64,000 nt of DNA from a virus (IMGVR_UViG_3300036769_000253), one strand, 5' to 3'; positions 633 through 45,585 are shown, counted from the first letter of the stretch. The notes: a model not told the origin generated them from the sequence alone. Numbers and translations: made by a program.

Positions 633-1625
633 ATGGGAAATTCATTACTAGATATTAAGCCACATCAGGTCAGTCGAGATTTACGTGGATATTCAGTTTT
701 GTTCTATGGAACGCCAAAATCTGGAAAAACCACTATTGCAAGTAAATTCCCTGGCGCACTTGTACTTGCATTTGAAAAAGGATATAGCGCAATTCCTGGC
801 ATCATGGCAAAACCAATGAATAACTGGGGAGATTTTAAGAAAGCTCTTTCTGAATTAAAGGATCCCGCAGTAAAAGAAATTTTTCAAACAGTTGTAATTG
901 ATACTGCTGATATTGCTTATGGATATTGTGAAAAATATATTTGTAGTAGAGAATCTACTGCAAAAGATTCATATGAGAATATTGCAGATATTCCTTATGG
1001 AAAAGGATATAAATTAACTCAGAATGAATTTGATGAATGTATTCGTAGAATCCTTCAAATGGATTACGGTCTAGTTCTTATCAGTCATTCTCAGGATAAG
1101 ACTTTTAAAGATGAAAAAGGTGTTGAGTATAATCAGATTGTTCCAACTCTTGATAATAAAGCAAGAACAATTTGTGAAAGAACATGTGATATTATTGGTT
1201 ATTCTCATTTAGTAGAAGATGAAAATGGCAATTCTACTACAAAACTTTTTATGAGAGGAACTCCAAGATTTGTTGCAGGATCTCGTTTTAAATATACTCC
1301 GCCAGTAATTGATTTTACATATGAAAATCTTGTAAAAGCAATTAGTGATGCGATTGATGAAGAGGAAAAACATCATGGAGCGCAGTTTATTACAGACTCT
1401 AGAGATGAAGCAATTCATTCAGAAGCTCCAGAATATGATTTTCCGGCAATGATGGAAGAATTTCAGACACTTGTTGGTAAGCTTATGGCTGCTAATCAGT
1501 CTAATTCTACAAAGATCACTCAGATTGTAGAAACATATCTGGGAAAAGGTAAGAAAGTTGGAGATTGTACTGCTGAGCAGGCTGCGCAGCTTGATATGAT
1601 TCTCTTTGACCTTAAGAAACTTTGA
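633..1625 (+). CDS. AAA-type ATPase, Sak4-like ssDNA-annealing/recombination protein
   Basis: Walker A GTPKSGKTT, Walker B VVIDT, YGKGY and CDIIGY motifs typical of phage Sak4/AAA_24 proteins; adjacent to ssb. Confidence 0.75.
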   Translation: MGNSLLDIKPHQVSRDLRGYSVLFYGTPKSGKTTIASKFPGALVLAFEKGYSAIPGIMAKPMNNWGDFKKALSELKDPAVKEIFQTVVIDTADIAYGYCEKYICSRESTAKDSYENIADIPYGKGYKLTQNEFDECIRRILQMDYGLVLISHSQDKTFKDEKGVEYNQIVPTLDNKARTICERTCDIIGYSHLVEDENGNSTTKLFMRGTPRFVAGSRFKYTPPVIDFTYENLVKAISDAIDEEEKHHGAQFITDSRDEAIHSEAPEYDFPAMMEEFQTLVGKLMAANQSNSTKITQIVETYLGKGKKVGDCTAEQAAQLDMILFDLKKL

Positions 1626-25352: not shown

Positions 25353-25395
25353 AAAAAAATGGGAAGAACTATAAAAGTTCTTCCCTTATTTTTTT
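25353..25395. terminator. Bidirectional intrinsic terminator at the strand switch
   Basis: GGGAAGAACT-ataaa-AGTTCTTCCC flanked by an A tract and a T tract between convergent genes. Confidence 0.9.
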
Positions 25396-25819
25396 ATGCT
25401 AATTTAGAAGCAAGTACAGCTATCTTCTTTTGTAGCAGTTGTTTTTCTTCTGGAGATGCAGTGGATGCCATTTCCATTACATCTTTTTGAAGCTCATTGA
25501 TATAGCCTTCAAGGTGTTGCATTGAAAGAATTGGGTCATTACTCATTTTTTTAACTTCTTTATATTCGTGATAATGTTTTTCAATAGGTCTATCTTCTTT
25601 CATTGTGTGCGGTTGATAGGCATCATGATGCGTCATAATTTCTTCTGAATCTGATTCTTCCATTGCTTTTACAATGCTGCAATAATACATTGTTTCAGCA
25701 ATATCTTTAATCATATCTACAACTTCGCCTAATTCTTTAGTATCTGCGCACTGTGGATTTTCTAATTCCATTTCCACTTGTTCCATAAGCATTTTTTTCA
25801 TTCTTTTAAGATCTTTCAT
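25394..25819 (-). CDS. Cassette gene 5: helical protein with His-rich centre, unknown function
   Basis: Start abuts the upstream stop (TAAATG); predicted all-alpha. Confidence 0.75.
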   Translation of the reverse strand: MKDLKRMKKMLMEQVEMELENPQCADTKELGEVVDMIKDIAETMYYCSIVKAMEESDSEEIMTHHDAYQPHTMKEDRPIEKHYHEYKEVKKMSNDPILSMQHLEGYINELQKDVMEMASTASPEEKQLLQKKIAVLASKLA

Positions 25820-26239
25820 TTACGCCACCCTTTCAACAATTAAATTAGCATTTTGAACTAAGATAGATTGTGTTGAAGTATTTTTAATACTAACTTGAGA
25901 GCAGCATCCTTTTGGGACATCAATAAAAATTGCGCCAGATACTGAATTATAATCATCAACTGCTCCAGGAGTAGAAATCATCATTGAAGAAGCAATAGGT
26001 TCTCCATCAATAGTAATTGCTACCGAGATTGAATCAGCTGTGCCACCTGTTGGAACTGCTATATTACATCCAAAAGTGACTCTGTAACGAGCTCTGCATT
26101 GTTGCGTTAGACCGCGCAAATTAACAAGCCCGCTTCCACTTCTATGGAGAATACTGCAGTTACCTTCAACCGCAGTATTCGTAAATAATATATCTTGATT
26201 AGCTGCTACTGTTTGAGCTGTTGTCGCAGTAATTTCCAT
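25820..26239 (-). CDS. Cassette gene 4: beta-sandwich protein, possibly BclA-CTD/C1q-like
   Basis: Alternating beta-strand pattern, 5 Cys, QNANLIVERVA ending; fold assignment is tentative. Confidence 0.6.
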   Translation of the reverse strand: MEITATTAQTVAANQDILFTNTAVEGNCSILHRSGSGLVNLRGLTQQCRARYRVTFGCNIAVPTGGTADSISVAITIDGEPIASSMMISTPGAVDDYNSVSGAIFIDVPKGCCSQVSIKNTSTQSILVQNANLIVERVA

Positions 26240-26266
26240 AAATACAAATCTCCTTTACTTATTTAC

Positions 26267-26983
26267 TTAACAACTACATCCATTAGAATAAGCTGCATAT
26301 GGACTACCCGTCAAATATGCAGGAATTGGACATGGACGAAGTTCATTTACTAAGTAAGCGTTCTGAGCGCATTGAGATAACTGGAAGTTAGCTGACTGTA
26401 GCTCATTATTCTTAGCTTCTAATCTATCACGTAACTCTTGCATTGTGTTAGCATTAATTAAAGCTCTTGTTTGTTCAGCTTCTTCTCTAATTGCTTGAGT
26501 TATTTCACAAGTATTTCGAGAATTATCATATCTAACTGCATCTATATTGCGGTTTGTATCACAGCAACAAGACTGCATTGCATAACGATTATCAGCTAAG
26601 TTAGCGTTTACTGTATTAAAACCTTGTGCAACAGAACTAAATCCTGTACACAAATCACGTTGCACGTTACCAAAATTGGTCAATAGAGTTGTGTTGTTAG
26701 TATAGAATCCATCACAAAGTCCTTGCTGAACTCCTCTAACACCATTTTCTACATTCTGGAAGTTTAAGTCTTGACTTAAATCTGCTCTAGTTAAGGCGCC
26801 CTGAGTTGCAGCTGAATTAGCTCCATTACCCCAGTTGCCTCCCCAACCTCCGCCCATAAAGACGAATAAGAATAGGATTATAATCCACCAAGCTCCCATG
26901 CCATCTGTCCAGCCAGCTTCTCCACGATTTCCAGAAGCAGCTGCAATATCTGATAATGAATATCCTGAACCTTGATTAAACAT
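26267..26983 (-). CDS. Cassette gene 3: membrane-anchored Cys-rich coiled-coil protein
   Basis: WWIIILFLFVFM hydrophobic segment, Gly/Trp linker, long N/Q-rich heptad region, 10 Cys including CCC and terminal GCSC; RBS AGGAGG. Confidence 0.8.
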   Translation of the reverse strand: MFNQGSGYSLSDIAAASGNRGEAGWTDGMGAWWIIILFLFVFMGGGWGGNWGNGANSAATQGALTRADLSQDLNFQNVENGVRGVQQGLCDGFYTNNTTLLTNFGNVQRDLCTGFSSVAQGFNTVNANLADNRYAMQSCCCDTNRNIDAVRYDNSRNTCEITQAIREEAEQTRALINANTMQELRDRLEAKNNELQSANFQLSQCAQNAYLVNELRPCPIPAYLTGSPYAAYSNGCSC

Positions 26984-27003
26984 ATTGGTTCCTCCTTTTA
27001 AAA

Positions 27004-27243
27004 TTATCTGAGGCCAAGCATTTGTTTAAAATTACTAAATTCTTGGTCAAAATCTACACCTCTCTGTTGGCATAAATTTCTAGCTAATTGTTCAATACCT
27101 TTTGTATCATTAGCTTGCGCCATACTTAAGAGGTTGTTACCCATAGGAGTTCCCTGCATTTGGCTTAAAAGATTCATCATTAATTGTTGTGGGTTTCCGC
27201 CATTTCTAATTAATTGAATAAACTGCATAGGATTAATATTCAT
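27004..27243 (-). CDS. Cassette gene 2: small Met/Gln-rich helical protein
   Basis: 79 aa with 8 Met and 12 Gln, NP-x-Q motifs; RBS AGGAGG. Confidence 0.75.
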   Translation of the reverse strand: MNINPMQFIQLIRNGGNPQQLMMNLLSQMQGTPMGNNLLSMAQANDTKGIEQLARNLCQQRGVDFDQEFSNFKQMLGLR

Positions 27244-27255
27244 TATATTACCTCC

Positions 27256-27714
27256 TTAAAAGTTTAAGTTTAATGGCTCTTTTGATTTTTCTTGTTCAGC
27301 TTTTTGCGGTTGCGGCTCGCTCATCGGGGTCGTCGATGCCGTAGAAGGTTGACTTAAAAAACTTTTTAATTGAGTCATAGCTATCTCAAATTCTTCTCGT
27401 GTTACATAAGCAGAACTATTCAACGGTGGTTCAACAGGCATTTCTTTCAATTCGTACATGTTTAGTGTGGCTGTGCCATCCATATTTATCTGCTTTGTGT
27501 AAATTTTTTTATTTGCCAAATCTGGGAAATAAAAAATCGAACCATCAAAATCTATTGTAGCAGCTCTCGCTTCTTCAATAGATGATACAGGTCTACCTTT
27601 TACAGTCGCCATCATCTGAGGACGCATCATTGAAGAAGGACTCTGCATCTGATTTTGATAGTATTGAGTTTGAGGTTGCATTTGGTTATAATAGCTATTA
27701 TTTGTAGGATACAT
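27256..27714 (-). CDS. Cassette gene 1: Q/Y/P-rich N-terminus, small beta domain, YVTREEF helix
   Basis: RBS GAAAGGA; low-complexity ends around a compact core. Confidence 0.75.
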   Translation of the reverse strand: MYPTNNSYYNQMQPQTQYYQNQMQSPSSMMRPQMMATVKGRPVSSIEEARAATIDFDGSIFYFPDLANKKIYTKQINMDGTATLNMYELKEMPVEPPLNSSAYVTREEFEIAMTQLKSFLSQPSTASTTPMSEPQPQKAEQEKSKEPLNLNF

Positions 27715-27957: not shown

Positions 27958-27985
27958 AAGGGAACCTCAATTAAGAGGTTCCCTT
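27958..27985 (-). terminator. Intrinsic terminator at the end of the tail/holin transcript
   Basis: AAGGGAACCTC-aattaa-GAGGTTCCCTT 11-bp stem overlapping the holin stop; T tract on the minus strand. Confidence 0.85.
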
Positions 27986-28381
27986 TTTAGTTTTTTGTTC
28001 ATTTACTGTTGCTTCAATCATATTAATGATATAAGCATCTAAATCGCCATATGCTTCTTTTAAATAAGTTTTAGCATCATCATTTAAAATTTTTAAAACT
28101 TCAGTTAAGGTTTCTTGAAAAGCTGCTTCTTGCGCAGTCTTATCAAATGAGCCTTGCTGTTTTAAAGTTTCTACATAAGTTTGATTCGTTGCAATTACAC
28201 AAGTAGTAATTGTATCTGTTAGCATATCTGTGTACTTTTTAGCTAATGCAGAATCTGACTCTGCATTAAAAGCTTCATTCTTTGCTTGGATATATTTAAC
28301 TAAATATGTAGTTAAAATACCAAGTAAAGGAATAATACACACTTCAAAAATATCTGTTAATATTTGTAAAAAAGTTTCCAT
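27971..28381 (-). CDS. Holin, LL-H-like
   Basis: Single N-terminal TM (CIIPLLGILTTYLV), V.A.NQ and IEA.V motifs; follows the tail fibre genes. Confidence 0.65.
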   Translation of the reverse strand: METFLQILTDIFEVCIIPLLGILTTYLVKYIQAKNEAFNAESDSALAKKYTDMLTDTITTCVIATNQTYVETLKQQGSFDKTAQEAAFQETLTEVLKILNDDAKTYLKEAYGDLDAYIINMIEATVNEQKTKKGTS

Positions 28382-35925: not shown

Positions 35926-36022
35926 TAATATAGTCCAATCCTTTCTATAATATTTTCGAGGGTGACATTTGCCACCCTCTCATTCTTTCAAAATATTTTG
36001 AAAGTATTATTATTTATAATAA

Positions 36023-36244
36023 TCATTTTTGACCAGTAAGAGGGTCTTTAACCTCTTTCCACTGGTCAACTTCATCTTCTGGAACCATAACTGTTGCGAA
36101 GAAATTCTCTCCATCTTTTGTTAAAGTTTTTCCCACATCAGCTCTTAAAGAATATTTACGAGTGTAATAAATATCTTCAAGATGAACGGGACTAGTAATA
36201 GTCCCGTTTGTTCCAAGATATGTATAATATACAGTCTTAGTCAT
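36023..36244 (-). CDS. Small tail-associated hypothetical protein
   Basis: RBS GGAGG; 73 aa directly after the giant gene. Confidence 0.6.
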   Translation of the reverse strand: MTKTVYYTYLGTNGTITSPVHLEDIYYTRKYSLRADVGKTLTKDGENFFATVMVPEDEVDQWKEVKDPLTGQK

Positions 36245-36255
36245 CTTGTCCCTCC

Positions 36256-39200
36256 TTAAGCCATAACTACGCTAATAGTTCCTTCATACTCAACACCCTT
36301 ATTGATCAAGCTCATTAAATTATCAGAAATAGTTCCATCAGATGTATAAACTACAACGTTCTCAATTTTAGCTCCGCTATTTTGAATAAAAGCTTTAGAG
36401 TTACCACCAATAGCAGTAATTTGAGTTGGATCTCCAGGTCCTCCGAACTGAAGAGTTGCAATACCTCTCATATTATCATTGTAAGCAAAAGCATAGTTAC
36501 CAATTTCTCTTACTGTACCTGGAATTCTAAGTTTTTCAGTTTTTGTAGAAGAGTTAAATGTCATATTGAAAGCAAGTTCACCAATATAACATAAAATATT
36601 TCCAAAATCAAATAATTTTAACTGATTGCACCCTACGAATGCAGAACCAGTAATAAATCTGACTGTCCCTGGGAACTGGAAATAAACTAATTTTTTACAG
36701 CCATTAAATGCGTTACTACCTATAGATACTACCTGTGGAGTTCCATACCAATAAACATGAGTAATATCCATTGAGCCAAATCCTCCAACACTAATGATTG
36801 GTTGACCATCATATTCAGTTGGCAAAGTAATTTTACCAGATAATGAATATCCATCAGCTGGTCTTACCATGTATCCAGTCGCACTATAAGAGCTATCATA
36901 TGGATCTGTATAGGATGTTTTTGAGAACTTTAAGTATTTAAAATCTGTAGTAGAAGTAAATACTGATTCTTGAGTAAATACTGCATAAAAATCTGTATCC
37001 TGTGTTGAAAGCATATTAGTTACAGATGTTAATTTAGCTGTATCTGCGCTTGCCGCAATTACATTTGCTAAATTCTGAGTATAACCTAAGAACTTATATC
37101 TTTGATCATCAGGTAATGCACTTTCATCCAATGTAGCCAATACACTTGGAGTATAAAGAACATCTCCATGAGGAACTTGATATTCAGCAATTAATGTTAA
37201 ATTATCAGTTTTTGTACCAGATAAGAATCTAATATTCCATTTATGAATAGTAAACACTGCATAGAATGTATAATCATATACATCGTTGTCTAATGTTAAC
37301 TCATCCCAAGCAGCTTGCTGTTCTTCCGCAGTAGCATCTGCACTTGAAATTAAACCTGTTGTATCATTAGTTGTTGACCAACCATGGAAATCGTAGTTAT
37401 CTTTTACTGGATTGTACATCTTATATGGATTTGTAAAGAATTCTCCAGAAGAAACCTTCTGAACACTCTTCTCAGTTACTTTCGTATCTGCATGATCTAC
37501 ATAAGTGTAAGTTCCATCATCCTCTTGGATAATGAATTTAGCGGAGTAAGCTTTATTTACATTCTTAAAGAAGAATGTTAAACTCGGGAATGCTTTTACA
37601 AGAGTATCTTTAATAAAGAGCTCTCCTAAAGCGGTATCATTATTAACATAAATAATACCTGTCAAGTTCGGAATTGTACTTCCTTCTGCGGTTCCAGTAT
37701 ATAATCCATTATCAATAAATGTTCTTAACATCTCAACATCAGCGATTTGATTAATATCTTCTTCTGGAATTGAAGAATCAAGCTTATAAAGTTCTCCATT
37801 CAAAACTTGAGTCTGGAATGTTGCTGCATTATAAGTGTATTTATCAAATCCGTAATGACCATTATCAATATAATAAGCGTCAGAATTAGAAATATCATAA
37901 GAATCTCCTTCAACTAACTGCTTATATGGACACCAATCAACATTAGTCATTGCAATTTTACTAATAGAAGCTGTCTGTCTTCGTCGAAGCTCGAAGTATT
38001 TTGCAAGTAATTTATAACTATCGTATCCAAGATTTCCACCAAGTAAACTTAAATTATCAATTACTGTATCTCCTTGACCCTCAAACATTCCTTGTATATA
38101 TAAACCTTTTTCAGCTACTAAATTACCATTATCATCTCTCTGTGGAACTTGATAATCGGTAATTAAATTAGTTAACAAGTTTGCTTCAGTTAAGCTTAAA
38201 GTAGTAATTGAACTTGGTAAATATAATGTATGTAAAGCTACGCCCTCAGCAAATTTAATCTCTGTGAAGTTTGATCCAGTAGCACGGAAGTTCTGCATTT
38301 TTTCACAACTTGTAAAATCAAGGACTGGAGATTGACCATTTACTGAAATATTACTAAAGTTAGCTTCTTTCAATAATGGCATTCCAGAAGAGGATTTACT
38401 AGAAGGAATACTGAACTGGTTAACATTATTATTTTTCCATTTATTTCCGCTTTCATCTACTCCATCATATCCTAGTAAAAGTCTAGTTAATTTAGAAGCA
38501 TTTCCGGAAATTTCAAACTCTTGCCAATATAGGTTACTCATGTCACCTAAATCAGCCATCTGATTTAATCCGTAAATATATAACAACTGCTCTGGGTAGT
38601 TGGCGCTCTTACGAACACCTTGCTCAATAGCATCAATGTTAAATTTGACTGGATTGACACCATCATACTTCTGAGAAGGATAAGCTTCATTATCATCACT
38701 TACTGTTACATAAGAAGAACGAATTGGTGTTAAATTCAACCAATACTCAGCATCGAATAAATTAGACTTCGTTCCATCTTCTTTGTAGTATGGCTCTTTA
38801 TCTGTTTCAACCCAAATATCAGAAGTTTTATTCGAATTATTTGCGGCCACACGTCCGCGGACACGGTTCGCGCCTCCACGTTGATAGTTACCTTGATTCA
38901 ACCAAGAATCAATATATTCCAAACGATTTGTTAAGAACTGCTGTCTACTTAAAGAACGATCTCCTTGTAATGCGTAGAAGTAAGTTCCATTCGCATCGTA
39001 TGTATAATCCCCAGCCGTGCCAATATGACCTGTAACTCCATTCTGATAACTAGAACTGTTACAAATTGTAATATACTTATAATATTCATCTAAATTAACA
39101 GCAATTAAAGGTCTTTCTCCTAATTTAGCAAAACTTTGAACTTTCTTAGCATTGTTATTAGTTGTCATAACTTCTTCACTACAATAAGGATTAGTTGTAT

Positions 39201-42200
39201 ACCAATTCTCAATTCTATCTACGCTATAGAATGGTGCGTGCTCAAGCTTTGTCCAAGAAACTCCATCTGTAACACCTTTAAGATGTTTATATTTCATAAC
39301 GATATAAGAATCTTTGAAATATTTATAGAAGTTATTCCAAAGGACACTATCTGATGTAGAGAAGTTTCCATCTTCTGTTGCATCCACGTTATATTCAAAT
39401 GAAGGAATACCAGTATTGTTAATACCTAACTGAGTATCAAGATCATAGAAAATTGGATACCAGATGTAATCTCCACCGTCTTTTTGCGGGCCCCAAGAAG
39501 CCATCATACAGTTCTTTCCACGAGAGTCATAACATTCCATAACCTCAGTAGCTACGAAATAAGTTGCTACATATTCAATATCAAAGTGAGAAGATAATTC
39601 ATAAACGAATTTATCTGCACGATATTCTTTTGTATCAAACTTATAAACATGTTTACCATAAGTAACGTCTTTTCCGATATAATACTTACCAGGCTCATAA
39701 GTGTCTTCTGTTACTTTAACTACCTTAGTAGCTAAGTCAGAACCAGTTACAGAACCATCATAGGCATAATATGTTTGGCTTGGATCAAATATTTCATCAT
39801 TGCAAACTTCAACAAGTCTATCTGCTATTTTAGCTAATTCTTCATCACTGAAGTCAATTAACTTGTAATATGTTTCAGATTCATCAAATTCACTAGTTTC
39901 ACCAGATAATACGTATTCACCATTAACGATTGTATAGAATGTACTTACTTTGAATAAATTCTCTGATGAACAAGCATACGCGTTTACATAAGATCCATCT
40001 TTAGCTTGTGAATAATATGTTAAAGAATCATCACATTCTTTTGCAGTTGAAAGAACGTAATCGTTTTCTGTCTCATCATAGATATAGAATTCATTAGGCT
40101 GATAGAGCTGTTTTCCTACGTTAGTTTCAACATAATTGCCTTGGCTTTTTACATTTTCAGTACAGGTTGACCATACCCATTTAACAGCTTTTTCCCAGTT
40201 GCTGTATAAGTCTAATAGTAATTCTTGTCCATCTGTTGGATCCTGTTTAATGTAATAATCTGGGAAGCTCTCATTAACAGTTTTTTCGTCTTCATCAGAT
40301 GCAGAACTTAAAGCAACGAGAATGTCAAGAATGTCATCATTTGCATTATAACGATACTCAAAACTATCAGCAACTACTGGCGCATTAGCTGAGGTGAAAC
40401 CACTACTTCCTGCGCTTTCTGGAGCTTTGAAGGATAATTCTCTTCTTCCCCAAGGATCTCTAAATGAACAAAATCCACGAGCGTTATTTTCAAATTCCCA
40501 ACATTCAGCTTTCTTACTAATTGCTTTATTCTTTAAGAATTTCTGTGTAAGAGTTTTATCTGGTTTAAATCCATAAACTTCATCAGATCCTTTATCCAGA
40601 AGCATGTTATACATACCAATGTACTGATAAGTTCCATCTGATTTCTTATGGAAAGCTAAAACTCTATAACCTGTAATACAGGTTCTATAGTCATCAAGGT
40701 CTTTAAATGTATAATCCTCATATTTTGGATTAGATACATAATAGTCAGTAACATTATTTGCATCTACTGTATCTTTTGTCTTAGAATACTTATTAGAAGA
40801 TGCATCATACTGATAATATGTTTCACCCTCTTTAAAGCTTGTAGCTTTATCATAATTTTCAACTTGCTTCTGGAATGCTCCCGCATCGTTGTAATCTTTT
40901 AAAGGATGTTTAGAATAACCATTATGAATTAAGCTTGTAAAGCCCATATTATAAGTTCCAGAAGACTCCATGTAGTCAATCTTCATAGTGAACTTAGTTG
41001 TACCATTTGTATAGTTATCCATGTAGAAGAATTTCTGACGAGTATTTTCTGAATCCTCTGCATAATCTGCAGCGAATGGACCTTTATGTAAGAAGATATG
41101 AATTCTATCTACACCATCTTTATCTGTATTCTTAGTCTTTAATTTATAGTTACGTCTTGGATAGAACTCTGAAGATGTTCCTTGAACAGCCATGCTGATA
41201 TTATCGCCAATAAAGCTTGGGCAATGATGCTGATAATATTTCTTAACAGCTGCTTCTTTTTCTTCTGCGCTAGAATTAGCGGTACATAAACCATCTTCAA
41301 TAGCATATTTCTCTAACTCGCCATTAGCATATGCTCTATCAAGACCGGTATTAATGAATTCAACACCAATATTAATTTTAGTTTTCTTAGAATAAGAAAG
41401 CTTATCATTATTTCCAGTTGCACTTGTATCAAAAATGATATAAGGCATTAAAGGAGCACTTGGATGTTCATCATTATACTTAATCATGTTATCATATTTA
41501 AACTGATATTCATGAATTGCAGTATTTTCTTCTGCAAGTTTATTTTGATCGTAAATAGTTACATTTTTTAAATCTACTGAGTAGTTAGTAACAATATCAT
41601 TTACATTTAAGTCTGTATTATAAACTCTAATTTTGTATAAGTCAATATCGCAATAATTAGAATTAAATACAATCTTATTTGAGTTAATTGTGAATAGACC
41701 GATTGTTGATTTAATAACACCAGTTAAAACACCATTAATATAAATATACATCATCTGGTCGCTACCATGAGAGTATACCATAGAAATATTGATTAACTGA
41801 TCCTCAACATAACTTACGTTTACAGTATTTGTTCCATTAGAAAAGAATGCATCTTGCGGTCCAAGACAGATTCCTACAGCTCCACTTTCGTCACCTGAGT
41901 AATAACTACAAGCAACTCGATTTAAGCTAATCTCTTTCTGAACTCTACTAAACTCAAGATCATCATAATCTACCTGTTGATCTTCACTTACAGTTGCATT
42001 GTAAAGAGGAAGGTAATAATGAAGGAATGAATCGTAGTTAGTATAGTAAGACTGCGCTTTAAATGCTGTATAGAATTTATCATCACCATTGTAACGTGTT
42101 ACGTTATGAATCAAGCTTGAGTAATCCTGTACATTACGAACTCTGAATTGAATTTCAATAGAGTTAGACTGTTTAGAAATATCAGTTGAACCATAAGTTA

Positions 42201-43770
42201 ATGTTCCAATAGGAATAGAAAATTCTGCTCCATTACTAATACGTAAACAAGTATTATTGTCATCATCAAGAACCCAACCATTATTATACCAGTTGAAATC
42301 CTTAAATGTAGCTTTAATAGAACCATCATCAGTAGTCCATGTTTCACGATTAACTGCGGATTCACTATTTGAACGACCCTTTGCGTCAAAGTTCAATTTC
42401 AAGGACTCTTGTTTAACAACTTCCATTGTTCTGTTCGGGTCTTGAACTACAGTAAAGGTAATATCTCTTGTTATGTCGCCGCAAGAAATAGAATATCTAT
42501 TTACCATATCCAAATCTGCATCTGCAATTTCAAAGATATTCCAAGAACTCATTGTAGTAGTATCAATATCACGAGGAGAACTTGCGATTTCCTTACCATT
42601 TTTTCTTAATACGATGTGCGCAGAGGCTGTGCTTGAAGGATCGTATACCAAGAATGGAATTTGAATTGTATCATAATTATAATACTCTTCATTATAAGTT
42701 CCCAACCAAATTACCGGATCTGTATTACCTGTTGCGAATACACCAATTTCAAATTCTATTGGATCTACCATCAATCCTCTAGACCATGTATTACTTACGA
42801 CAATAGCTTGATATAATTCAATACGAACTGAATGATAACCATGTGTTGCATAACTAGAACTTACAGTATAGCTCTGGAAGTTTTCAGATGAAGAAGTTAA
42901 TTTTTTAGATTCAACTAAAGTTCCATCAAAATAGAAATCAAGAATTTTATTCATACTTCCGATTGCATTACACTGTAACTTAACATTATCTGGTGTATAA
43001 CGTGCGGTTGCTGAGAAATTTTGAGACTGAGTTAATGATAACTGTCCAGTAACAACATCAACGCTCTTAGAAGCACTCTCACCACTATTAATACCACTAG
43101 CATACATAGTTAAACGAGATGATGTTGATTCTCTTAATTTTTCGCCTAACTCAAATTCTGTTAATTCACCAGAGTTAACATCCATTTGGCCTTCACTATA
43201 TTTAATATAAGTTGAATCAACTTTTTCATATAGAGTCCAATGAACTATTAATTTATCATCCATAACAGAGCCATCATAATCAACTCCAGAATTTGCAGTA
43301 AAGTATACTCCAAAAGACTGACCATTGATTAGATTACTTGTTGACAATGGCTGAATGGTAATACCAATTTTCTTAGATAAACTAGATGTACCACCGCCAC
43401 CTGATCCACCACTTCCGCTTACTGCGAGAATTGCGCAAAGCATAGAGCGTGAATCAGAATCCGCTTCCATAACTCGATAGAAGATTCCATCTTTATTTAA
43501 AATAAGATCTCCTTCTTTTGGAGTTACATCATCCTCAAGATCATCAAAACTCAAAGTGTAAAAACCTTGTTCATCTGGACTGATGGTATCAGCTTTACCA
43601 TATAATAAAGCAACACCACTACCGCCCATAGAAATACGAGTATTTTGATCTAAGTCTAAATAAATTCTTCCGGTATCAGTTGCAAAATAAACATATCCTG
43701 GCGTTTTAGAAGCGCTTAAGATTTGCTCTTCTGTACCATTGACCGGTCTAAATTTAGTCTTATCTGTCAT
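36256..43770 (-). CDS. Giant multidomain protein (~2500 aa): fibre-type N-terminus, LamG-like, CotH-like kinase, LRRs, B-repeat-like, BspA-type LRRs
   Basis: Likely start at 43770 after GAAAGGAG. QGTSS..YPRRNYK, DSRGKN and YDLD motifs; IYINGVL/LYKIRVYN; YDFHGWST; IGSNAF.GC..L repeats. Confidence 0.75.
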   Translation of the reverse strand: MTDKTKFRPVNGTEEQILSASKTPGYVYFATDTGRIYLDLDQNTRISMGGSGVALLYGKADTISPDEQGFYTLSFDDLEDDVTPKEGDLILNKDGIFYRVMEADSDSRSMLCAILAVSGSGGSGGGGTSSLSKKIGITIQPLSTSNLINGQSFGVYFTANSGVDYDGSVMDDKLIVHWTLYEKVDSTYIKYSEGQMDVNSGELTEFELGEKLRESTSSRLTMYASGINSGESASKSVDVVTGQLSLTQSQNFSATARYTPDNVKLQCNAIGSMNKILDFYFDGTLVESKKLTSSSENFQSYTVSSSYATHGYHSVRIELYQAIVVSNTWSRGLMVDPIEFEIGVFATGNTDPVIWLGTYNEEYYNYDTIQIPFLVYDPSSTASAHIVLRKNGKEIASSPRDIDTTTMSSWNIFEIADADLDMVNRYSISCGDITRDITFTVVQDPNRTMEVVKQESLKLNFDAKGRSNSESAVNRETWTTDDGSIKATFKDFNWYNNGWVLDDDNNTCLRISNGAEFSIPIGTLTYGSTDISKQSNSIEIQFRVRNVQDYSSLIHNVTRYNGDDKFYTAFKAQSYYTNYDSFLHYYLPLYNATVSEDQQVDYDDLEFSRVQKEISLNRVACSYYSGDESGAVGICLGPQDAFFSNGTNTVNVSYVEDQLINISMVYSHGSDQMMYIYINGVLTGVIKSTIGLFTINSNKIVFNSNYCDIDLYKIRVYNTDLNVNDIVTNYSVDLKNVTIYDQNKLAEENTAIHEYQFKYDNMIKYNDEHPSAPLMPYIIFDTSATGNNDKLSYSKKTKINIGVEFINTGLDRAYANGELEKYAIEDGLCTANSSAEEKEAAVKKYYQHHCPSFIGDNISMAVQGTSSEFYPRRNYKLKTKNTDKDGVDRIHIFLHKGPFAADYAEDSENTRQKFFYMDNYTNGTTKFTMKIDYMESSGTYNMGFTSLIHNGYSKHPLKDYNDAGAFQKQVENYDKATSFKEGETYYQYDASSNKYSKTKDTVDANNVTDYYVSNPKYEDYTFKDLDDYRTCITGYRVLAFHKKSDGTYQYIGMYNMLLDKGSDEVYGFKPDKTLTQKFLKNKAISKKAECWEFENNARGFCSFRDPWGRRELSFKAPESAGSSGFTSANAPVVADSFEYRYNANDDILDILVALSSASDEDEKTVNESFPDYYIKQDPTDGQELLLDLYSNWEKAVKWVWSTCTENVKSQGNYVETNVGKQLYQPNEFYIYDETENDYVLSTAKECDDSLTYYSQAKDGSYVNAYACSSENLFKVSTFYTIVNGEYVLSGETSEFDESETYYKLIDFSDEELAKIADRLVEVCNDEIFDPSQTYYAYDGSVTGSDLATKVVKVTEDTYEPGKYYIGKDVTYGKHVYKFDTKEYRADKFVYELSSHFDIEYVATYFVATEVMECYDSRGKNCMMASWGPQKDGGDYIWYPIFYDLDTQLGINNTGIPSFEYNVDATEDGNFSTSDSVLWNNFYKYFKDSYIVMKYKHLKGVTDGVSWTKLEHAPFYSVDRIENWYTTNPYCSEEVMTTNNNAKKVQSFAKLGERPLIAVNLDEYYKYITICNSSSYQNGVTGHIGTAGDYTYDANGTYFYALQGDRSLSRQQFLTNRLEYIDSWLNQGNYQRGGANRVRGRVAANNSNKTSDIWVETDKEPYYKEDGTKSNLFDAEYWLNLTPIRSSYVTVSDDNEAYPSQKYDGVNPVKFNIDAIEQGVRKSANYPEQLLYIYGLNQMADLGDMSNLYWQEFEISGNASKLTRLLLGYDGVDESGNKWKNNNVNQFSIPSSKSSSGMPLLKEANFSNISVNGQSPVLDFTSCEKMQNFRATGSNFTEIKFAEGVALHTLYLPSSITTLSLTEANLLTNLITDYQVPQRDDNGNLVAEKGLYIQGMFEGQGDTVIDNLSLLGGNLGYDSYKLLAKYFELRRRQTASISKIAMTNVDWCPYKQLVEGDSYDISNSDAYYIDNGHYGFDKYTYNAATFQTQVLNGELYKLDSSIPEEDINQIADVEMLRTFIDNGLYTGTAEGSTIPNLTGIIYVNNDTALGELFIKDTLVKAFPSLTFFFKNVNKAYSAKFIIQEDDGTYTYVDHADTKVTEKSVQKVSSGEFFTNPYKMYNPVKDNYDFHGWSTTNDTTGLISSADATAEEQQAAWDELTLDNDVYDYTFYAVFTIHKWNIRFLSGTKTDNLTLIAEYQVPHGDVLYTPSVLATLDESALPDDQRYKFLGYTQNLANVIAASADTAKLTSVTNMLSTQDTDFYAVFTQESVFTSTTDFKYLKFSKTSYTDPYDSSYSATGYMVRPADGYSLSGKITLPTEYDGQPIISVGGFGSMDITHVYWYGTPQVVSIGSNAFNGCKKLVYFQFPGTVRFITGSAFVGCNQLKLFDFGNILCYIGELAFNMTFNSSTKTEKLRIPGTVREIGNYAFAYNDNMRGIATLQFGGPGDPTQITAIGGNSKAFIQNSGAKIENVVVYTSDGTISDNLMSLINKGVEYEGTISVVMA

Positions 43771-43818
43771 ACGGATTTTATTCTCCTTTCTATCATTATA
43801 TATCATATATAAAAAGAA

Positions 43819-43847
43819 AAAGCCGAAGAGAGATAATCTCTTCGGCT
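43819..43847 (-). terminator. Intrinsic terminator
   Basis: 12-bp stem AAGCCGAAGAGA/TCTCTTCGGCTT, then a T tract on the minus strand. Confidence 0.85.
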
Positions 43848-43887
43848 TCTCACCTCTCTAATTGATCTAAAAATTAAAAATTATAGA

Positions 43888-45585
43888 TTATTCGAAACTG
43901 CCCCAAACCATATCAATTTGTAGACCTTGTCTTGTTGTAGTACTCGATGAATTCTCACCAATAGTGTCATTATCAGTGATAGATAAACTACTACTAGCAA
44001 TATTTACATAAGCTGTTCCAGTAGATATTTCATTGTTAAGCGTGTTTCTTAATGCAATTTTAGTCTTAATATTACCAACATTTGTTCCACTTTTTGTGAA
44101 AGCTGTAGTTGTAACTTCTGGAGTACTCAAAGATGCATTAGTATCTGTTAATGTATATTTTGTTGTTTCAACTCCGGTTATATGTCCAGCGCTATCAGAT
44201 GTTACTCCTGTAACAGCTTGAATAATAAGTGATTCTGCCGGTATTTGACCTTCTGCTGTAATAGCAGATTCAGTACGAGTTGTATTTGCGTGAGCTACTG
44301 TGATAGTCTGAGTAAGTGGATCATCGTTGCTATTTTTTCCACTTACTGTCATATTAGCTCCAGGAACTACTTGAATAGTACCAACTGCTGCATTCATACT
44401 ATTTGTTAAGGCAAATCCTGCACCATTAGCTACAGTTGAATTAAGTAAACGATAAGTTGTATCAGTATCATTTGTCGATTCAACAATATCATAGGTTAAT
44501 TTTGAAGCATCAATATAACCGTTACTACCTTCTGTACCATCTGAACTACGCGCAATTAACAAAGTACCTTTAGTTAAGTTAACACTTCCGTATTTTAAAT
44601 CACCACAAAGTAAGAAAGTATCTCCAATAGATACGCCAGAGGCTGGAATAGTTGTACCTGCACTACCTTCTGTACCATCAGAATTAGTACCTATAGTACC
44701 TTTATATGTCATTGCATTAAGGGCTTTCATTGTATCATCAATTTCACCCTTAGTATAAACGTCTAAAGTAGCTGTACCATTTTCAAATTCAACTGTGACT
44801 GGCGTTTTACCATATTTGATAACTGGAGAAAATGTTCCACTAACAGTTTTTCCAAAAGAATCTGCTACAGCAACTGTAAATCCTTTAGTGGTGACATCCT
44901 TAATACCATTCTCAACTGTTAAAGATGCGTTCGTAGAATCTTTTGCGGCAATAGTTACAGTTTTATTTGTAGAATCATTTGTTAAAGTAACATTATTACC
45001 TTGTTTTAAAGTTACTTTAGTGTCATTACTAGTATTAGCTGAATCAAGTTTAATGTCAACTTCACCAGTATTTGTACCTGCGGCATTTGATAAAGTATAT
45101 TTATCTCCTGTGATAGTTAACGCAGACCCGGTCCCAGTGATTTTAATTCCATCTTTTCCTGTTACTGTAAAACTAGCTGATTGACTAGCATTATTATTAC
45201 TCGTAACAGTATGTGTAACTGTACCAACATCATTTGAAGCACTTACAGCAGCCGTGTGTTTGGTTATATATGTATTTGAGTTAATTTGAACCCATTCGTT
45301 TCCGTTGTATACGCATAAAATATTATCCGTAGAAACATAGTAAAATCTACCCGCATTTGCAGTTTTTTCTTCTCTATCTTTAAAAATTGGTAAATCATCA
45401 ATTGTTGCAACAGTTATGACACCCTCGTTCACAGGAGCAAGGGAAGTGTCCTGTTTACCAATATATAGACGGTTAGTATCTGAGGTTAAATAAAAAGTAC
45501 CTTCTATGGCACCCGCACTGGTACCAGCAGCAATAAGTTCATCAACCTTAGATTGTGGACCAAGTGTAAAACCTACATTAGCCAT
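43888..45585 (-). CDS. Tail fibre-like protein (565 aa)
   Basis: Fibre-type N-terminus (GTFYLTSDTNRLYIG); T/S/G-rich beta strands; DSAGHI motif. Confidence 0.7.
   Translation of the reverse strand: MANVGFTLGPQSKVDELIAAGTSAGAIEGTFYLTSDTNRLYIGKQDTSLAPVNEGVITVATIDDLPIFKDREEKTANAGRFYYVSTDNILCVYNGNEWVQINSNTYITKHTAAVSASNDVGTVTHTVTSNNNASQSASFTVTGKDGIKITGTGSALTITGDKYTLSNAAGTNTGEVDIKLDSANTSNDTKVTLKQGNNVTLTNDSTNKTVTIAAKDSTNASLTVENGIKDVTTKGFTVAVADSFGKTVSGTFSPVIKYGKTPVTVEFENGTATLDVYTKGEIDDTMKALNAMTYKGTIGTNSDGTEGSAGTTIPASGVSIGDTFLLCGDLKYGSVNLTKGTLLIARSSDGTEGSNGYIDASKLTYDIVESTNDTDTTYRLLNSTVANGAGFALTNSMNAAVGTIQVVPGANMTVSGKNSNDDPLTQTITVAHANTTRTESAITAEGQIPAESLIIQAVTGVTSDSAGHITGVETTKYTLTDTNASLSTPEVTTTAFTKSGTNVGNIKTKIALRNTLNNEISTGTAYVNIASSSLSITDNDTIGENSSSTTTRQGLQIDMVWGSFE

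Follow-up and report, generated by a model that had tools for sequence, protein, structure and literature searches.

The 64,000-nucleotide stretch of virus IMGVR_UViG_3300036769_000253 analysed here (the window; positions are counted from its first letter unless marked as genome positions) carries a gene for a giant protein of 2,504 amino acids (aa), and this protein holds a CotH-type kinase fold that is complete and whose catalytic residues are unaltered. The window comes from a virus record of 175,638 bp that is complete and bounded by direct terminal repeats; the virus is a long-tailed 176-kb phage infecting an animal-gut microbe, and its late operon carries the gene in the tail module. With modest confidence we read the product as a distal tail fibre or adhesin-type protein whose CotH kinase-fold enzyme domain acts at the phage–host interface. 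The domain itself is probably an active Mg/Mn-dependent phosphotransferase, a catalytic core being proposed because its Asp, Asn and DxD residues are invariant. The protein is real but not new, and belongs to a very large known family. Residues are given in the numbering of the longest open reading frame (ORF; P0001, from 43806), and true residue numbers are the P0001 numbers minus 12.

Kinase fold and catalytic motifs

An earlier note on this sequence had proposed an apparently intact CotH-like kinase domain and had named five motifs within it. All five were located (Table 1), and the region has a two-lobed protein-kinase-like fold that is closest to solved CotH and extends across both lobes. 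Not one motif residue varies among 40 homologues of 46–60% identity, R884, R885, K888 and K890 of the N-lobe motif QGTSSEFYPRRNYKLK included, and nine C-lobe residues (D1427, R1429, K1431, N1432, W1449, Y1454, D1455, D1457 and G1461) are invariant in 289 of 289 homologues pooled from two database searches; the motifs are therefore not the product of chance. The D-x4-N and DxD motifs on which the proposal had leaned are thus kept throughout the family. Neither of the two computational outcomes that the earlier note had named as refuting its proposal, a region lacking the kinase fold and motifs that vary among homologues, was obtained. In a full-length alignment, residues 1401–1500 form the best-conserved stretch of all 2,516 residues, with 0.78–0.89 identity to the studied sequence. 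The least conserved stretch is 2150–2516, which holds the BspA-type leucine-rich repeats (LRRs), and identity is 0.25–0.37 over the last 350 residues.

To relate these motifs to cellular CotH, we built a hidden Markov model (HMM) from 23 bacterial CotH domains that lie above the Pfam gathering cut-off for CotH (PF08757, 23.8 bits), most of them at 220–255 bits. This HMM aligns ‘ipyDyDntlG’ with IFYDLDTQLG, ‘wDny..knN’ with YDSRGKN, and ‘RGntS..KKsFki’ with QGTSSEFYPRRNYKLK. The D1427/N1432 and D1455/D1457 motifs are taken to correspond, by position, to D228 and D251 of CotH, an equivalence that comes from motif alignment and not from residue mapping to B. subtilis numbering; mutation of either D228 or D251 inactivates the enzyme (PMC7821199). 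Within the family, Pfam CotH is matched by 7 of the 40 members at E ≤0.01 with no other family recurring, and several homologue fragments carry precomputed PF08757 matches.

Inter-lobe insertions

The lobes are separated by ∼360 aa (YIGMYN 1067 to DSRGKN 1427), shorter than the ∼500 aa first estimated, and the Tyr-rich repeats noticed there are present as β-hairpin units of the type T-[FY]-Y-x(3-5)-[DGN]-x-x-Y. Nine such units were counted: two in a first, variable N-lobe insertion (980–1029; column conservation ∼0.2, 55% gaps), one at 1184, and six at 1240–1380 in the main insertion, which is poorly conserved and is predicted to form β hairpins with strands at predicted local distance difference test (pLDDT) values of 78–94. 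QGTSS and the catalytic Asp lie 552 aa apart, as opposed to 234 aa in the compact CotH domain of Bacillus phage G gp353 and ∼190 aa in bacterial CotH; in 215 full-length family members this spacing runs from 249 to 814 aa (median 551). Across the family, the number of [FY]Y units rises with this spacing (r 0.84, from 2 to ∼9.5 units). As the spacing lengthens by added Tyr-rich hairpin units, the loop is marked as variable and is probably a target-facing surface of the enzyme. The hairpin arrays have no Pfam match at E up to 10, and the ESM Atlas gave no usable match for the inter-lobe insert; a likeness to choline-binding or CROP-type cell-wall repeats is an impression that we mention as a lead.

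Relatives in phages and cells

The gene had been presented as unusual, which does not stand: a search with a C-lobe profile recovers 1,884 or more clusters at 50% identity, and proteins of 2,000–2,900 aa make up most of the 150 best-scoring ones. The annotation ‘Spore coat protein H kinase fold’ is attached to relatives in BFVD, crAss-like phage proteins included. In the literature, phage tail giants of this LamG–CotH kind have been noted since 2018, without biochemistry. Wu et al. 2018 listed ∼2,000-aa targets of diversity-generating retroelements (DGRs) with CotH and Laminin_G_3 motifs as category f1 (PMC5758913), the model by Roux et al. of a viral target of 2,284 aa, PC_00012, includes a CotH-like kinase (bioRxiv 10.1101/2020.04.01.020958), Benler et al. 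2021 term such phage proteins ‘currently unstudied’ (PMC8008677), and Macadangdang et al. 2024 place >2,000-aa variable proteins with CotH, carbohydrate-binding motifs and LRRs in domain group 3.

Phage G gp353 (2,055 aa) clears the Pfam CotH threshold (60 bits, alongside Laminin_G_3 and LRR domains) and, among proteins that do so, shows the strongest pairwise link to the giant protein; the order LamG, CotH, LRR is common to both. The C-lobe aligns at E 9e-18 and the LamG region plus N-lobe at E 2e-4 (hhalign 98.9%), and gp353 is a structural match to the N-terminal half (BFVD, E 4.6e-28). In gp353 an LRR_EndoS domain (residues 1231–1317) follows CotH and does not align significantly with the LRR-like region of the giant protein. 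The gp353 gene adjoins that of the metallophosphoesterase gp352, a counterpart of which was not found in the studied genome (no BLAST match among the genome ORFs, no large ORF with GNH[DE], and Metallophos matches only in two small plus-strand genes ∼56–64 kb away).

The fibre of the Hankyphage (Bacteroides phage p00/BX-TP1 gp40) aligns over the C-lobe with 24% identity (E 2e-8), keeps the D..KN and YDxDTQ motifs, and also has a LamG domain; it has been treated as a DGR-diversified tail fibre (PMC12135933). Like other LamG–CotH tail giants, the protein studied here exceeds 2,000 aa, has its LamG/ConA domain upstream of the CotH-like core, and is encoded among structural genes. Its kinase lobes, however, lie ∼300 aa wider apart than in Hankyphage-type proteins, and where the latter end in a C-type lectin diversified by a DGR it ends in a BspA-type LRR tip. 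No reverse transcriptase (RVT_1) occurs in the complete 175,638-bp genome, and the protein is therefore a non-DGR relative and not a DGR target.

Bacillus CotH (PF08757; PDB 5JD9/5JDA) is a single-domain Ser/Thr kinase, ∼360 aa long, whose site of action is the spore coat as it forms, whereas the fold described here spans 777 aa, is split by hairpins and sits within a 2,504-aa tail protein, at an identity of ∼12%. Cellulosomal CotH homologues are extracellular components of unknown function (PMC12774918), and cotH-like genes occur in Gram-positive pel polysaccharide loci beside a polyphosphate polymerase and DUF4956 (PMC7112168). These proteins likewise have the CotH fold outside the cell or near polysaccharide genes, but they are cellular and not virion proteins. 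Neither a VTC-type polyphosphate polymerase nor DUF4956 was found in the phage genome. Among 14 control genomes, CotH was matched in four (B. subtilis, B. thetaiotaomicron, C. glutamicum and M. acetivorans), and VTC together with DUF4956 in exactly the last three; this co-occurrence fits the cotH–polyphosphate polymerase–DUF4956 set and may point to a connection of CotH with polyphosphate.

Domain architecture and tail-module context

Upstream of the kinase fold, the AlphaFold2 (AF2) model of residues 13–845 (pLDDT 84.7) comprises a small N-terminal β domain and a Gly-rich linker ahead of the Ig-like and lectin domains (Table 1). The N-terminal domain, a presumed virion anchor, has no Pfam match at E up to 10, so that the ‘fibre-type’ label once given to it finds no support in Pfam. 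Equally without a match at this threshold are the carbohydrate-binding module (CBM)-like sandwich that follows the kinase fold and the mid-protein LRR-like region (∼1780–2060), the latter having been seen by eye. The LamG-like region of the earlier note is recovered as a ConA/LamG lectin jelly roll and its BspA-type LRRs are borne out by Pfam LRR_5, while for its B-repeat-like segments a Flg_new match is present but weak (E ∼1e-3).

Table 1. Features of the giant protein, its gene and the surrounding region
Feature	P0001 residues	Position	Strand	Remarks
Giant-protein coding sequence		36256..43770	minus	2,504 aa from ATG at 43770
Ribosome-binding site AAGGAG		43783..43788	minus	12 nt 5′ of ATG 43770
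Intrinsic terminator		43817..43851	minus	between upstream 565-aa gene and giant-protein gene
N-terminal β domain	13–130	43417..43770	minus	∼120 aa; AF2, pLDDT 65–80
Gly-rich linker	131–142	after N-terminal β domain	minus	
Ig-like β-sandwich array	143–455	42442..43380	minus	PKD-like and Fn3-like
ConA/LamG-type lectin jelly roll	460–750	41557..42429	minus	
CotH-type protein-kinase-like fold	862–1638	38893..41223	minus	both lobes and insertions
N-lobe motif QGTSSEFYPRRNYKLK	875–890	41137..41184	minus	aligned to bacterial CotH ‘RGntS..KKsFki’
KIDYMESSG	942–950		minus	
First variable N-lobe insertion	980–1029	40720..40869	minus	two Tyr-rich hairpin units
YIGMYN	1062–1067		minus	
Main inter-lobe insertion	1223–1389	39640..40140	minus	six Tyr-rich β-hairpin units
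Catalytic-loop motif YDSRGKN	D1427, K1431, N1432	39511..39531	minus	aligned to ‘wDny..knN’; DSRGKN is 1427–1432, 39511–39528; Asp codon 39526–39528
Metal-binding-type motif WYPIFYDLDTQLG	D1455, D1457	39424..39462	minus	aligned to ‘ipyDyDntlG’; WYPIFYDLDT is 1449–1458; DLD 39436–39444
CBM-like β sandwich	1640–1765	38512..38889	minus	3′ of kinase fold
LRR-like region	∼1780–2060	37627..38469	minus	by eye, unconfirmed
Listeria-Bacteroides repeat (Flg_new)-like segment	2114–2154	37345..37467	minus	weak; E 1.2e-3, below Pfam cut-off
BspA-type LRRs	2361–2447	36466..36726	minus	Pfam LRR_5, E 4e-13
Tape measure		genome 138728–148888, just past window's right end	minus	phrog_4211
Holin		window 27971–28381	minus	phrog_13712, E 6e-30
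Cys-rich cassette		window 25394–27714		

The stretch between tape measure and holin is the usual location of distal tail and fibre genes. The late operon, on the minus strand, opens with a sigma factor, a terminase-like protein, a portal and virion proteins, followed by the tape measure (3,386 aa; phrog_4211, E 5e-66), whose length implies a very long tail. Proteins of 1,877, 858 and 968 aa come next, the last matching phrog_1887 ‘tail protein’, then proteins of 116, 1,814, 328 and 565 aa, then a terminator and the giant gene. On its 3′ side lie genes for proteins of 643 (Ig-like), 195, 1,407 and 190 aa, and then the holin. This order (tape measure, tail protein, giant gene, holin) bears out the earlier assignment to the tail module; the neighbouring genes have no Pfam match. 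A link between the giant gene and the Cys-rich cassette (25394–27714), raised as possible in the earlier note, was not seen, though no test aimed at it was made.

The protein at the head of the operon matches the phage sigma factor phrog_5767 (E 1.5e-49; genome ∼164381–165391, minus strand), and its C-terminal end also matches, weakly, an HNH/endonuclease VII-type domain. At the other end, the holin closes the late structural operon just ahead of a terminator previously placed at 27958–27985. Near residue 2300 of the tape measure, a patch RRSSGSRGSRGSGSRGS loosely recalls the Ser/Arg/Lys repeats phosphorylated by Bacillus CotH; the resemblance is purely speculative and does not count as evidence.

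Proposed function and alternatives

From N to C terminus, the protein would present an anchor, a Gly linker, Ig-like spacers, the ConA/LamG lectin, the CotH-type domain, the CBM-like sandwich, LRR-like repeats and a BspA-LRR tip, the last being its fast-evolving distal end. The lectin and variable tip would bind the host envelope, the CotH domain would phosphorylate a hydroxyl on a target at the phage–host interface, and the Tyr-rich hairpin array, which lies just ahead of the active-site motifs in the sequence, may serve as the docking surface for that target. The interface is suggested because lectin, CBM-like and LRR domains flank the core; CotH homologues are also known outside the cell, in cellulosomes (PMC12774918). 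As to what is phosphorylated, a host envelope protein or glycopolymer reached at adsorption is a possible but tentative candidate, and it is slightly more likely than virion proteins modified in the infected cell at assembly. In a stronger and rather improbable version, the domain would be a virion-displayed phosphotransferase acting extracellularly on a host envelope polymer such as wall teichoic acid, capsule or S-layer glycoprotein, with the hairpin array as a polymer-docking platform; were this so, a tail enzyme would add a group to a receptor instead of cutting it, and the donor would possibly not be cytoplasmic ATP.

Several points weigh against an interface enzyme of CotH type. Against Pfam CotH, the giant protein reaches 20.8 bits (E 3e-4) in one comparison and 21.6 bits (E 8.7e-6) in another, both just below the gathering cut-off, with insertions interrupting its CotH domain. 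In the PDB, sequence searches that used the region, two profiles or gp353 as query gave no CotH match, and hhalign against the 23 bacterial CotH domains is weak (C-lobe E 7.5e-5, probability 62%; N-lobe E 0.008). Among the conserved N-lobe residues, it was not possible to single out the lysine that would bind ATP. Presence of the protein in the virion is suggested only by synteny and by its relatives, a kinase displayed outside the cell would have no obvious ATP supply, and a CotB/CotG-like Ser/Lys/Arg repeat substrate was not found in the genome, which holds only one 17-aa SR/G patch, in the tape measure.

The ATP problem would be solved if the activity of the kinase were confined to the infected cell, with its abundant ATP, and the domain phosphorylated itself or tail and virion proteins to pattern or stabilize the particle. 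This reading, which we hold to be unlikely though worth serious weight, agrees with the placement of the gene in the late operon with structural genes, with the Tyr/Ser-rich hairpin array adjoining the active-site motifs, with the short RRSSGSRGSRGSGSRGS patch in the tape measure, and with the sole characterized CotH activity, that is, phosphorylation of the coat proteins CotB and CotG and autophosphorylation, needed for coat assembly (PMC7821199). The lack of an SKR-type repeat substrate in the genome counts against it as well, however, and the lectin, CBM-like and LRR flanks point outward, to the host surface. An assembly-time role also leaves unexplained that phage lineages as distant as phage G, Hankyphage and the crAss-like phages all have the domain joined to a receptor-binding fibre.

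Two further readings are less likely than either an interface or an assembly role. Pseudokinases are common within the kinase superfamily, and the fold could be a rigid scaffold or a pocket for a phosphate- or nucleotide-like ligand (e.g. teichoic acid phosphate), a proposal in keeping with the lack of an evident extracellular phosphate donor, with the N-lobe lysine that is not pinned down, and with fungal CotH proteins, which are host-binding invasins (PMC9973265). The Asp, Asn and both DxD Asp residues are nonetheless invariant in 289 of 289 homologues and lie in the best-conserved stretch of the protein, as would be expected for chemistry and not for scaffolding, and we regard a binding-only module as improbable. 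Least probable is an effector, the protein or a fragment of it entering the host with the DNA and phosphorylating host proteins so that signalling, division or sporulation is altered, a speculation put forward by Roux et al. for DGR-linked relatives (bioRxiv 10.1101/2020.04.01.020958). Cytoplasmic ATP would then be at hand, but a protein of 2,500 aa that combines lectin, Ig, LRR and adhesin modules and evolves fast at its tip resembles an external fibre, as the Hankyphage relative has been treated (PMC12135933), and signals for cleavage or translocation were not observed.

Few large genes of gut phages are as widespread as those for giant CotH-core tail proteins, which span phage G, Hankyphage and the crAss-like phages. 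Their catalytic residues are conserved without exception. The member studied here adds no new principle and is a clean, complete, non-DGR example; a possibly useful detail is that the inter-lobe spacing grows through added Tyr-rich hairpin units.

Host affiliation

Related contigs carry metagenome-assembled genome (MAG) labels of Clostridium, Mollicutes, Erysipelotrichaceae and Lachnospiraceae, labels that may reflect mere composition-based binning, and a host other than Bacteroides is likely. C-lobes with 53% identity are encoded on contigs of 164–175 kb that were assigned to MAGs named ‘Clostridium sp.’ and ‘uncultured Mollicutes’; these contigs look like mis-binned relatives of the studied phage.

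Gene start, terminator and flanking regions

The region holds a single long minus-strand ORF (36256..43806), and the longest-ORF call accordingly runs to 43806. The true start is likely to be the ATG at 43770, because an AAGGAG box precedes it at 43788–43783 and homologue N-termini agree: an equivalent Met begins the homologues, with the N-terminal consensus MxxxxxFxPVxGTE. The ATG at 43806 is disfavoured because it falls within the U-tail of the terminator and has no ribosome-binding site. The strong terminator that had been reported just upstream of the gene is real, with a 15-bp stem followed by a U-run (−26 kcal/mol, z −7.1), and on the basis of this terminator alone the giant gene may be expressed separately.

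The 330-nt spacer 3′ of the gene contains no ORF. The gene is present without differences in contigs assembled from RNA libraries of four animal-gut studies, and these contigs end within both flanking intergenic regions (35926–36255 and 43851–43973), two of them stopping at 43844 and 43850, at the terminator stem; transcription and transcript ends cannot be read from such contigs, and DNA may have been carried over. In one contig of low depth (run X4, depth 3, 21-nt side), 86 nt within the gene are missing (38983–39070, GT..GT ends); such a skip would cause a frameshift and probably arose during assembly.
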